DNA of 64,000 nt from Octopus vulgaris (Eukaryota), in assembly GCA_951406725.2 (NCBI GenBank), contig OX597814.1, forward strand, positions 14,446,001 to 14,510,000. The letters run 5' to 3'. This document shows, one piece after another, positions 3,165 through 55,558 of this stretch. Position numbers and translations under genes: made by a program. The notes under the pieces were generated by a model. That model saw nothing but the letters and a program-made list of their open reading frames with translations, searched no databases and was not told the origin of the DNA. Each line of letters starts with the position of its first letter. The stretch's first letter is position 1.

Positions 3165-4545
3165 AACATCTCTTCTGGCCAGCGTCTTCGCAACAGAATG
3201 TGAGGATTCCCTGCTCTGTGAGTTGGGGAGTGGTGACGCTGATTCAAAAGGAGCAGAGCAAGGGGTATATTATAAGTAATTACAGGCCCATAACTCTACT
3301 CATTGTAGAGTTAAAGATTTTGGACAAGGTGTTAGCTAAAAGGTTGACGTGTGTCGTGGAGAAACTTGTAGGAAAGGCCCAGACATGCGGAATCCTAGGC
3401 AGGTTGATCTGGGACAATCTTCACCTTATCCGCTACACCTTAGATAGATTGGGTAAATTAACCGGCAAAGGTGGAGTAATTGTCCATTTAGACCAAAATA
3501 AAGCGTTTGATTAGGATAGACCACCAGTACCTGGCGGCGATCTTCGACGCGGCTAGGCTGGGCCCTGACTTCCGTGGTTGGATCTCCGCCATGTATAGCG
3601 GCATTAAATCCACAGTCCAGATAAACGGCTACCTGTCTGAGCTGTCTCTATCAAGCGTTCAGTTCGTCAAGGGTTGTCCTTTGTCTCCGCTCCTGTACGT
3701 GTTGGCTCTTGATCCATTACTGCGGAAGGTGAAGTATTTGGGGGACGTCCCTATGAAATCGGTTGCGGTAAGTCGGTCACAGCTTACGCGGATGACGTCA
3801 CCATCATCGTATCCAATGAAGCTCAGCTACCTCGTGTAGAGGAGGCTATTAGAGGATACGAGGTGGTGGCAGCGGCAAAAGTTGACAAGGACAAGTCCAT
3901 AGGCTTGCGCCTTGGCACCTGGAGGAGCAAGTCGATATTGTCCAGTGTCGTGGGTCACTGGACAGGTGTTCCTGTTAAGTTGCTTGGAGTTTGGTTTGGA
4001 CCGGAATCCCAGACGGAGAAGAATTGGAGAAAGTGAGTAAACATAGTGGAGGCCTTTATCCGGACCTGGTCCAGAAGGTCTCTGTCCCTGGAAGGAAGGA
4101 TAGAGGTGGTACAGGTATTTATTGCATTTGTTATCACCTACCGCCTGACCGTTGTTCCTTGCCCCGACTCGTGGCTGAACAAGTTGGAGCGACTCCTCTT
4201 CCGCGTATTGTTGAAGTGGGGAAAGCCACTTGTGAGGCGCTCCGTTTGCCGCTAAAGGGTGGGTTAGGATGACCTGGTTGATGATGCGCAGACATGTGTT
4301 GAGGCTGAGGCATCTCTGGTGCTACATGGAGGGTAATAAGGTGTGGAGTCCGTTGGCAGAGGAATTGTTTCCGCGACTAGCCTCTTTGGAGCGATTTAAA
4401 CCCGGTTTCATTAAAAGACGTAATCTGAATTGCAAAAAAGTATCAACAGGAACTTGTGCTTATCCACAAGACTGGCAAGGCAGGCAATTGGCATACCACC
4501 TCAGTTTTGTAAAGAGGGATGGTAGAACATAAAAATGATGGCGTC
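3165..4545 (+). pseudogene. Tx1-clade LINE reverse transcriptase fragment, frameshifted
   Basis: NYRPITLL, LDQNKAFD, KGCPLSPLLY, AYADDV (3782-3799), KGGLG motifs spread across frames. Confidence 0.92.
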
Positions 4546-23476: not shown

Positions 23477-24869
23477 TACATTAGTTACAAGAAAAAATGC
23501 AAAGAATGCAAACGAGATTTCTATAAGCTAATGGTTGAAAGTAGCTTCACGATGGTGTTGTGTGTGGAGTAGTGGCACCACAAGCTATGGAAGCAGAACA
23601 ATAATGCCTATAATTTCATGGTTCTCATAAGCGAACGATTCTGTATCTTATCAATGCTGAAACACTCCTGAATTTACAAAAAGAATTTAGGTCCGAGTGA
23701 TGCTTTTTGCGAATCATATAAATGTGTAGTGGCAATACGAAATAATAAGAGATTGTCAGGCGTAAAATTTTGATTTTTTACTCGTATGTCGGTCATGACT
23801 AGAGAGGTTGATATATAAGACTGTTTGTTTGATACATGAAATGATTGTTTTGTTGATCTGTAAAAAGAAACAACATCGTATATTCAATTAACACTGTTAC
23901 TATTGTTTAATGTATGTCCCGCGAGAGGAGATTGGGTTAAAGTGCATCGTATCTAAGAGTAGAAGGATATGGAGTGAATGTTGATATTACATGTATAGTG
24001 GATTTGTTGTTAGAAGGAACAATATGTAAGTCAATAACCTGCTTGTGATGTTAAATGAAAGATATTTCCAAACGTTTGGTGTAAATAACACTTGATATTA
24101 TATTGTCTGGTGTGCGTCACAACGGTACAATGGATAAAAGAGAAAAAAAGATTTTGATAAAATGAATCAGGTGCAAATATATGAGATATTCTATGAACTA
24201 GCTAGAAGAGATATATGCGGTGCCACGTTAAAAGCACCCAACTGACACTGTAAAGCAGTCGGCCGTTAGTTAGCAAGGACATCCACCTGCAGAAGCCCAA
24301 GCCAATTTAGAATAGAACCCAGTGCAGTTCTCCCGCTTTCTATCTCTGGTCAAACTGTCCGATCCATACCAACATAGAAAACGAACATTCAATACAACAG
24401 CATTCTCGGAAGCGGTGATATAAGTTACCCACCGGCATATATTACTGTAAGGTAATCATCATTGTCGACAGTGAAGAGGTGATGAAGTGATTCAAAGGGT
24501 GAATAAGAGGAAAACAGAAAAAAAAATCATTTCATATTTTCATGGTACGATATACATACGCACACAAGCACACACACATACACAAACACACATGCACACA
24601 CAAACACACACACTCAATGTATAGGGTCCCAATTTTGGTAAATGTTTCCTTGATTTCTGAAAACTGATAAGCAAAATAAAACAATAAATGTGTGTGCAAG
24701 TGTGTCTGTGTATGCGTGTGTACGTATGAGTGTCAGTGGGTGCGTGCGTGCGTGCGTGCGTGCGTGTGCGTGTGTGTGTTTGAGTTGAGTGATGACATCT
24801 GGTAACGGAAAAAAGTTTGGATGAGATTTACACAGCATCTTACAAGGTGTTTACTTGAAGTGACTTTTT

Positions 24870-26545
24870 TTTTCACTCACAAATGTGAATAGATCTTTGA
24901 CCAGGAGGAACTGATATCATCAGACGGTATCCAACGATTATTGTGTTTTTCGTCCCTGAACCGTAAAATGCTCCCCTTAGTCGGTCAGCAGAGGTGGCCA
25001 AATCACTGCTCCTCATTTCATCCTGGCTTCCAGCTTGACTCTTCTCTTTTCGACCATAACCAACAACAGGCTCTTCCATCTGCCTCTCCCATCCTGCGCA
25101 AAGCCACCCTTAGCTCATTTCCTTTCATTCCGATTGCTGTGAACATCTTGCATACCGACTGCGCAGGAATCCCCTACAGCTAGCCTCGACTAGGAAAAGG
25201 CGTAACTGCTATCCTTTCTCCCTGCAGTCGTTGAGAATGCTCTTATACTTGACATGCTTCAATTCGAGAGCCTGATCACACACGTCTTCCCATGGGACTG
25301 TAAGCTCAATCGAAATCATTTTCTTGGTCTTTTCAGACCACAGAACCTCATCTGGCCTCGGTTGTATGGACAACCTGGGGGAAACCTGCAGTCTCTCTCC
25401 CAGATCCACTTTCATATCCTATGATTAGGCTCCATGTAGTAAGCTATGTGTCTTTTTAGTTGTCCTTACCGCCTCTCTCCCTCTTTCACAAGCTTAATTG
25501 CTGGTGTTGCTTTCTCTTGATGGTGATGTTTCTTGAGCCTTTCCTGTTCCAGTGTGTTAGCGAGTCTTGTAAGCTATATATCATGGCACTACCTGTATCT
25601 CCTTTGTGAAAGCACTATTTTGTACCATGGCAATATATGTGACTTTCTCCACAAAGTCTACAGAGCTGGTCTTCTCTCAAAACTCATATGTACAGGTTTG
25701 TTGGCGTTGGGTGTGCCTCATACAACGCCCGCAGCAGGAAGGAAATTTGAAAAGGATCCAGTCATTACAGATCTGTCCCTTCTTAGGGAGGCTCCGTTTA
25801 GTTTAGTCCAGGCATCCTGAGATATTATCTTCACAAATTTTAATCATTTTCTTTCTTCCTACTGGTTCTGCACTTCTACCCGAATCATGGCCATCTTCTC
25901 CTTGGTGTCCGCCTTTTTCCATTGTTAAAAATGAGAAAACAAGAGACCCTGCCACCATCTGCATATGACTCGAATGAATGACACGTTGCTCCAGCATGCT
26001 TTCAGCCGGTACGACTGTGGTGCTAGCTCTAACTTTCACCCGGACCTTGTTGTAATACCTGCATATCCGACAACCTCATCCTACAAGTCTCAGTACATCA
26101 TTATAGTACGACATTGAGCGAATTTGAATTACTCCATTAAGGATGACAGTAGGAGCTGTAGTTGTCCCAAAGTTATGTACAGGCCTATTCACGTGAAGGT
26201 TTAGGACACACCCAGCCATAGTAGGAGGTATTTGTTTACCTTCCTTTCCACACTTTCCACGCTTGTCATTGGAATTTAATATACTGTCAATAAACATATG
26301 AGTCTTGAAAGTAGCCCATGTTACTAGGGCCATGCCATGTATTTTTCTGGAAAACCTGATCTTTAAAATCTCCTCAGCTACTCCCCTGCTTGATTCTCAG
26401 TATTGGTGATGTTGCTTCTGTCCGATTGCAAATCTAAGACATATGATCGGATTTTCTCCCACTGATGGAAAGGCCTCTCCTAACCACAATGCTCCTAGAT
26501 CTTGGAGCTTCAACTTCATTCTAGTCCATGTTGCCATTTATTCAA
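24870..26545 (-). mobile_element. HERO-like RLE non-LTR retrotransposon, 5'-truncated and decayed
   Basis: RLE domain RPDEVLWSEKTKKMISIELTVPWED...KY. Zinc-finger-adjacent RYR.CHD remnant. Short A tail at ~24865-24873. Confidence 0.85.
24895..24995 (-). ncRNA. Rearranged (non-circularly permuted) hammerhead-like motif in the HERO-like 3' UTR, partly decayed
   Basis: Minus strand: GCATT-TT-ACGGT...GGAC-GAAA-AACAC...ACCGT-CTGATGA-TATC. Confidence 0.55.
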
Positions 26546-54664: not shown

Positions 54665-55558
54665 ATGAGAGATTGCTTCGAATGACCTGTCCTTCTCCGT
54701 CTTTTTATCGTCTGTCTGGCCGGATGTTTTGTTGTCGTCTTTTGCGTTCTTTTTTCATTGTTTGGATTTATATATACACATGGCGCCGTCGTATACTTTC
54801 GCTCAACTTGTAGGTATCTAAATTCTATACGACTCTTTCACTATAGAATCCTCTCATACTTTCTTTTTTCTTTCCTCTTTTCTTTTTTCTCACTCACCTC
54901 TCTCGCATTTCTTGACCTTCCCTTTCTTTAATCTCCCTACTTACCCACCTCGTTTATCCCCCTTGTACCTTTCTCTATGTCCCTTGATTTCCTCTCTTTC
55001 TTGTTCTTTCCCTAATTCTTCTGTCCTTCAGCCCCGTACCACACTCCTTTCGTTCCACGTGACCGGTGATCTTTCTTTCCTGGATCCACTGCATGATCTT
55101 TCTTTCCTGGATCCACTGCCGGCCTCGAAGCATCTTATATTGCTGTCTCATGACTTGCATCTCTTACGTTCATCTGTTATGTTCCTGCCTCACGGCTTTC
55201 ACTCTACACACCCTTGCTCAACTTAATTCGTCTTTGTTGGTCAAAAGACACCGGTTGTTACTTTCTTGTTTGTATTTGTAATTATGTAACATTTTCTCTG
55301 TTTTTTTGTCTTTGTTGCAGTACACATTCGCATGCTTTCTCCAAAAAAATTTGATGCCCTGAGCATAGAATTCTGGGATCGGCCAGATTTGAAGAGTCTC
55401 AAGTTTAATTGACCGAAACTGTAATGAGATACTGCAAACTTGACTGATGAGAGATTGCCGCGAATGATCCGTCTTTGTGTTTTCCTGTCCTTCTTTTTAT
55501 AGTTTATGTCTGAGTATTTTATTGTCATCTTTTGCGTTCTTGTTCAGTTTCTAGGATT

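Follow-up and report, generated by a model that had tools for sequence, protein, structure and literature searches.

A hammerhead-like ribozyme fold, apparently opened between A9 and G10.1, in the tails of HERO-like LINEs, and a possible circular RNA route for their copying

The closest described counterparts of the motif considered here are the type-SGC hammerheads, in which the cleavage site, GAAA and CUGAnGA follow one another in this order. Their cleavage has been demonstrated and, in the accessible text of the original report, they are found only in metatranscriptomes, while CUGAnGA and its stem II strand are assumed to be inseparable (Eckert 2023, PMC10085705). Hammerheads also occur in non-LTR retrozymes, for which the available text proposes a route from circular RNA to tandem cDNA and describes ligation by RtcB in vitro (Cervera and de la Pena 2020, PMC7229834). 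The Naiads are reported to be without hammerheads, but some of them contain unexplained 'half cores' 35–50 nt apart, according to the part of the description at hand (Craig 2021), and variants 'containing additional helices' are mentioned, with reference to three works, in the accessible part of another study (PMC13725137). In the literature searched, which lay outside subscription journals and Repbase Reports, type-SGC occurred in the original paper only, and we found no report of a hammerhead in HERO/RLE LINE tails, of an autonomous LINE copied from circular RNA, or of a core opened at A9/G10.1; nor was such a variant found in the accessible parts of Perreault 2011, Forgia 2023, PMC13725137 and two preprints.

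The locus lies in a stretch of 64,000 nucleotides from Octopus vulgaris (contig OX597814.1, positions 14,446,001 to 14,510,000), hereafter called the window, in whose numbering all coordinates are given. A rearranged hammerhead-like motif had been predicted at 24895–24995 on the minus strand, and all of its elements are found at the places given for them: TT (24966–24965), ACGGT (24964–24960), GAAA (24951–24948), ACCGT (24928–24924) and CTGATGA (24923–24917), with ACGGT and ACCGT forming the perfect stem I that had been described (5/5 pairs). A descriptor drawn up after the motif was seen, demanding site-GAAA-CUGANGA order, a stem I of 5 Watson–Crick pairs and at least 3/5 pairs in stem III, matched twice in the whole window, namely here and at 55399 on the plus strand. 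In 300 dinucleotide shuffles of the window it matched 0.01 times on average (three shuffles with one match). Hammerhead families were absent among the 150 listed of 193 matches in an Rfam scan of the window. As predicted, the order of the blocks is not a circular permutation of types I–III, but it is not new either, since S-G-C has been published (accessible text of PMC10085705); what is new here is the break between A9 and G10.1, in a new setting.

The prediction that a hammerhead core in pseudoknotted order sits in the terminal part of a HERO-like LINE with an RLE is borne out: the carrier (24868–26537, minus strand) is a 5'-truncated and decayed copy of such an element, in which the end of the RT region, a zinc-knuckle region, the RLE and the tail are interrupted by several stops and frameshifts. 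The name HERO, taken over from the original prediction, is presumably appropriate for it. In tblastn, the fragment (26537–24868) corresponds to residues 622–1168 of full-length relatives at 33–69% identity, and the RLE motif was found in its sister copies. The genome of the octopus itself (G000) contains 42 matches of the window family, with identities of 74–81% if the window itself is left aside, which stem from 40 of the 499 candidates scored. Full-length relatives occur in fish, lancelets and bivalves, a host range in agreement with that of HERO in the accessible part of PMC9004415; the viral and prokaryote collections searched yielded no relatives. Elsewhere in the window, a weak RT-domain match of about 20% identity (3516–4219, plus strand) marks another retroelement remnant.

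The HERO-type layout, a single ORF with RT and a C-terminal restriction-like endonuclease, is present in the relatives and in a young HERO-like family of the same genome, here called family Y, whereas the window copy is a broken fragment. Family Y was found by protein search, is 37–38% identical to the reference proteins and has a unit of 3738 nt with a 1175-aa frame and an intact motif. This frame contains RVT_1 and the PD..E motif of the RLE; Pfam gives only RVT_1 and zf-RVT, and the GIY-YIG endonuclease of Penelope-like elements is absent, with the RLE motif being there. The genomic-layout tests described below rest on family Y and not on the older family of the window.

For the analysis of the fold, 80 of 148 related metagenome loci were fetched via protein alignment, blind to the RNA. 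A loose core pattern after the ORF matched in 53 of these 80, while 10 loci ended too soon and 17 gave no match; inspected by eye, the latter were mostly decayed forms, and L147, L153 and L156 (33–37% protein identity) were without any trace of the motif. The alignment used for the fold had 23 rows, comprising 19 of 25 cluster representatives, two further loci, one copy from the octopus genome and the window. L112, L120, L136, L137 and L139, which are decayed or near-duplicates, were not part of it, and L129 and L189, misaligned by MAFFT, were omitted from the pair counts and inspected by eye; L129 and family Y have, by eye, the same helices. Six helices forming a doubly pseudoknotted fold were read by eye off these same 23 rows and, because the structure was thus derived from the rows themselves, changes on both sides of a pair weigh more than the pairing percentage. 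Both-sided changes were found in 32 of the 37 pairs, and 92.7% of the 831 cells were paired, compared with 68.3% in shuffled and 33.6–45.0% in slid controls. The covariation in stems I and III on which the original prediction had staked its case was found, with both-sided changes in 5/5 and 4/6 pairs, respectively (96.5 and 94.2% paired). The corresponding values are 4/5 pairs (91.2%) for stem II with its strand upstream of the site, 5/6 (90.8%) for helix IV, 8/8 (87.6%) for the clamp helix V and 6/7 (96.9%) for hairpin P0. G10.1–C11.1 is present in 18 and UH at the site in 21 of the 23 rows; CUGANGA and GAAA occur in all 23, which were selected by this very pattern.

According to these alignments, the core has its opening between A9 and G10.1, and two additional helices clamp it. 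Past A9 the RNA continues into helix V; the partner strand of this helix is located further upstream, and from there the RNA passes through hairpin P0 to G10.1. Helix IV bridges stems I and II on their far sides and meets stem III in 16 of the 23 rows via a kink-turn-like bulge of 3 nt plus tandem GA, which is absent in the window copy. Judged by its predicted pairing, the fold is an SGC hammerhead with its ends joined that has been re-opened inside the catalytic strand.

In the window copy, on the minus strand throughout, the upstream strand of helix V (25014–25026) lies within the last ORF codons, the protein match stopping near 25006, and is followed by hairpin P0 (24987–25010; 5/5 pairs), which runs straight into G10.1, the first base of the stem II 5' strand (24982–24986) upstream of the cleavage block. 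The 5' strand of helix IV, the helix that connects stems I and II at their far ends, lies at 24976–24980 (4/5 pairs) and leads to block S (24960–24971), made up of the stem III 3' strand (24971–24966), U17 (24965) and the stem I 5' strand (24964–24960). The cut is predicted between 24965 and 24964, the position originally proposed, which the comparative data uphold. Block G (24943–24956) contains the stem II 3' strand (24956–24952), GAAA (24951–24948) and then the stem III 5' strand; the decayed kink-turn-like bulge and the helix IV 3' strand occupy 24931–24942, the stem I 3' strand (24928–24924) and the CUGAUGA core (24923–24917) together span 24917–24928, and the downstream strand of helix V (24901–24916; 3/4 plus 8/9 pairs) begins immediately past A9. 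Stems II and III had been described as partly decayed, and they are (3/5 and 4/6 pairs, respectively), but stem II is not built from the bases after CUGAUGA. A plain SGC stem II made from these bases was rejected, as it is paired in 50.9% of cells compared with 49.0% after shuffling and its first pair is unpaired in 22 of 23 rows. The proposed closing helix TGACC/GGTCA had to be given up as well: it has 5/5 pairs here, but the majority sequence of the family forms 4/5, pairing across 24 copies is 71.9%, and TGACC is the stem II 5' strand. In the window family, the upstream strand of the clamp helix and one half of P0 (25026–25004) overlap the last codons of the ORF and its stop, so that the ribozyme could be unfolded by translation; the motif of family Y, in contrast, lies entirely downstream of the stop codon.

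Every helix is fully paired in the majority sequence of the window family. The window copy itself has kept stem I and P0 and, with the losses in stems II and III, is likely to be inactive. Among 24 copies of the family, a set from which six segmental duplicates were dropped, CUGANGA is retained in 13, and the CG that precedes AAA is intact in 7, altered in 13 and could not be located in 4; such core losses fit neutral decay. Ten 9.5-kb stretches contained no full-length copy of this family, all copies being 5'-truncated and seven of them duplicates of one insertion, and a guessed junction pattern found no tail-to-head junction. Eight loci (L006, L007, L019, L020, L024, L025, L026 and L181) represent a single old insertion that was spread by segmental duplication, often near contig ends. 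In L027, L028 and L029, an identical short repeat is inserted at one motif position inside the stem I 3' strand, which reflects either a site preference or a common ancestor. A third HERO-like family of the octopus genome (L169, L170, L177, L178, L182 and L183), close to the metagenome locus L116, has its own version of the motif.

The original prediction had likened the motif to one at 55381 in an unrelated element, and the likeness could be confirmed for the architecture, in what is a separate repeat family. The second motif (55330–55470, plus strand) has its predicted cut at 55398/55399, GAAA at 55415–55418 and CUGAUGA at 55444–55450. The majority sequence of its family has complete helices I, III and IV and forms 4/5 pairs of the upstream stem II, compared with 1/5 in the SGC register. 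An informative upstream ORF that would identify the carrier was not found in 25 loci.

Family Y is abundant, with 696 exact matches in its genome to the 21-mer that starts at the predicted cut. Twenty of its copies were picked for long ORFs, four of them for being paired. All 20 carry the whole ribozyme and stop at +116 to +126 from the cut, and six exceed one unit, continuing upstream through a seamless tail-to-head junction. Copies of the window family likewise include the complete ribozyme and have their ends some 120 nt downstream of the cut, and among the 30 loci listed (L159–L188) none ends at the cut. Of 18 exact junction-crossing copies, two of which are duplicates of each other, 14 run past the upstream ribozyme, four start at +26 to +95 and none starts at the cut; no indel at the cut was found in 93 of 93 crossings counted. 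An R2-like main route, in which the upstream ribozyme makes the 5' end, was rejected on this ground, as 0/14 long copies stop there. Duplicated stretches are present in 14 loci, whose repeats have 72 non-majority alleles in common, including 58 common subfamily alleles, and differ at a single polymorphic site. This ratio of 58 shared alleles to one discordant allele indicates that both repeats of a locus stem from one template lineage; it also led us to reject, for family Y, independent insertion beside an older copy and jumps between random RNAs, with L080 as a possible exception. The shared-allele test took the place of a nearest-copy test, which carries no information for aged copies; in that test, the sister repeat was at least as close as any other copy in seven of nine loci, the exceptions being L343 and L344. 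The G-run just before stem II is unequal between the two ribozyme copies in five of six family-Y loci, which speaks mildly against a single circular template, the run being prone to slippage. Arrays of three units were not seen.

Tail-to-head junctions are present also in the metagenome loci L080, L081, L082, L099, L113 and L118, four of them on contigs with possibly collapsed repeats and L118 with unique flanks. L080 (1–5659) is a head-to-tail pair of two families that are 70% alike and switch near the 3' end, not at the cut; an insertion at a relative's junction, a template switch and a misassembly are all possible. Right after the junction, distant families share another conserved motif, in which TGAC precedes a short hairpin with a GAAA cap (L082:2505, L099:2829, L113:1809, L118:421, L080 at about 2010 and L189:4610), which recurs in degenerate repeats and might be a signal for protein binding, priming or translation. 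L347 and L350 are internally deleted family-Y units that keep two ribozyme ends and thus are candidate non-autonomous derivatives. The 3' flanks of family Y and of the window family are mostly (TA)n, (CA)n or AT-rich DNA; a crude search revealed no clear target duplications around the copies.

The 5' ends of family-Y copies provide a further view on the predicted bond. In a position-fetched set of 80 copies, out of 90 listed on two contigs and minus 9 matches already taken as long copies, 75 start within 900 nt of the cut and four start exactly at the bond. Genome-wide patterns that required two mismatched flanking bases revealed true 5' ends in 9 of 11 matches at the bond, whereas the nearby positions +2 and -2 gave 1 of 7 and 1 of 6, respectively (binomial p 0.0014); the raw counts of 11, 7 and 6 had looked flat before the flanks were inspected. 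The bond had been predicted beforehand, and the nine copies starting there are free of microhomology by construction. At position -122, which is unrelated to the ribozyme and was chosen afterwards as the next-highest peak, 7 of 10 matches are true ends, so that a pile-up of such size is not unique to the cut. The accumulation at the bond is suggestive rather than conclusive evidence of cutting in vivo. We regard it as very probable that intact members self-cleave.

For active relatives we slightly favor a route in which the RNA is cut at the predicted bond, closed again into a circle of unit length and copied from a constant internal position. Transcripts from loci that exceed one unit would contain two ribozymes, both of which would cut, and the resulting 5'-OH and cyclic-phosphate ends could be joined by the ribozyme itself or by an RtcB-type ligase of the host, as for retrozymes. 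The RT-RLE protein would nick AT-rich DNA, prime about 120 nt downstream of the joint and copy backwards round the circle. Each copy would thereby keep the whole ribozyme, and long copies would restore the layout with two ribozymes; RNA that was cut without being joined would give rise to 120-nt copies beginning at the cut. The template appears to be continuous across the bond, readable for more than one unit and sometimes ending at the bond, and copying from a circle would account for all three. For the entire proposal, namely that HERO-like LINEs might replicate autonomously through a ribozyme-made, unit-length circular RNA, with the element inside the clamp helix of a hammerhead opened at A9/G10.1 and the same wiring in a second, unrelated retroelement family, we consider the chances to be about even.

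Circles would be unnecessary if, as in Penelope-like elements, an uncut tandem transcript were primed internally and the active ribozyme had a side role in providing a translatable 5' end, in turnover or in control. Seamless crossing of the cut and shared alleles are likewise expected from donor loci that are tandems, and the unequal G-runs agree with such a linear template. There are also precedents in the accessible parts of the literature, with internal initiation and in vitro dispensable cleavage in the Penelope-like element PAc (PMC11167929) and translation driven by cleavage in viral UTRs (PMC13725137). On this route, however, daughters are never longer than their donors, and most family-Y copies start close to the cut; the junction nonetheless persists in at least seven families, so some step must regenerate the repeat, and we regard a purely linear route as unlikely. 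A repeat could also arise if two cuts released a unit-length linear RNA that was not ligated and the RT, on reaching the 5' end of this RNA, made a precise jump to its 3' end. These two ends would be kept adjacent by stem III and helix IV, which bridge both sides of the cut, and the pile-up at the cut, the shared alleles and the fixed 3' end would all be explained. The RT of R2 is capable of end-to-end jumping, but such jumping is imprecise, whereas none of the 93 crossings has an indel or added base at the cut; jumps between random molecules are excluded by the allele counts given above. This makes jumping within one molecule a rather improbable source of the junctions.

The remaining explanations assign the fold a different task. 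It might be a hammerhead-derived structure without catalysis, kept as a binding or priming signal for the protein of the element, as the constant spacing between the fold and the priming site in two distantly related families and the assumption of Eckert et al. that the A9/G10.1 link cannot be interrupted (accessible text of PMC10085705) would suggest. Against this, the catalytic positions and UH are kept while the stems turn over, and 5' ends accumulate at the exact predicted bond, which leaves a non-catalytic role very improbable. The function originally proposed, in which the ribozyme makes the 3' end of the reverse-transcribed LINE RNA, fits the position of the motif in the tail of the element. 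It is at odds with the ends of the copies: the ribozyme is retained in all 20 protein-selected copies of family Y and in the window family, and since copies end about 120 nt past the cut, 3'-end processing is excluded for these families and hardly conceivable as the general function.

If the fold is as predicted, hammerhead architecture would extend beyond the six block orders of 2023, through a link that was assumed to be unbreakable, and these would be, as far as the literature searched shows, the first non-circularly permuted ribozymes in animal genomes. Descriptor searches with the standard blocks would miss a core split at A9/G10.1, which may explain why such elements have been reported as ribozyme-free. 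Copying from a circle, if correct, would mean that a protein-coding LINE is copied round a ring from an internal start, unlike R2 and L1, which prime at the RNA 3' end; this mode of LINE replication is possibly new. Since family Y is young and intact and has hundreds of copies, the claims on both fold and circle are directly testable.

Compared with the described systems, as far as their accessible texts go, the fold is closest to type SGC (HRIMA-1 and variants; PMC10085705), with which it shares the S-G-C order, the shortness of the linker from stem I to stem II and a helix that connects these two stems on their other sides, which on the wording of that paper is equivalent to helix IV here. 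In SGC, however, the stem II strand directly follows CUGAnGA, whereas in the present fold this strand is found upstream of the site and a separate clamp helix continues from A9; moreover, SGC is not reported from genomes of known organisms or from retrotransposons. R2 and L1Tc are also non-LTR retrotransposons with self-cleaving RNA (PMC3774820, PMC3383444), but theirs is an HDV-like fold at the 5' end and full-length copies begin at the cut, in contrast to the 14 long copies of family Y, none of which stops at the upstream cut. The non-LTR retrozymes (PMC7229834) are, like family Y, hammerhead-bearing tandem retroelements. They are non-coding, 170–400 nt long and equipped with type I hammerheads, whereas the element described here is autonomous, with RT and RLE, and its 3738-nt unit with a long ORF is neither short nor non-coding. 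Penelope-like elements (PMC11167929, PMC8557442) share with it the partial tandems, the hammerhead in the repeated end, internal priming downstream and AT-rich targets, and differ by their GIY-YIG endonuclease, in place of which the present element has an RLE, by their telomerase-like RT and by their canonical hammerheads.
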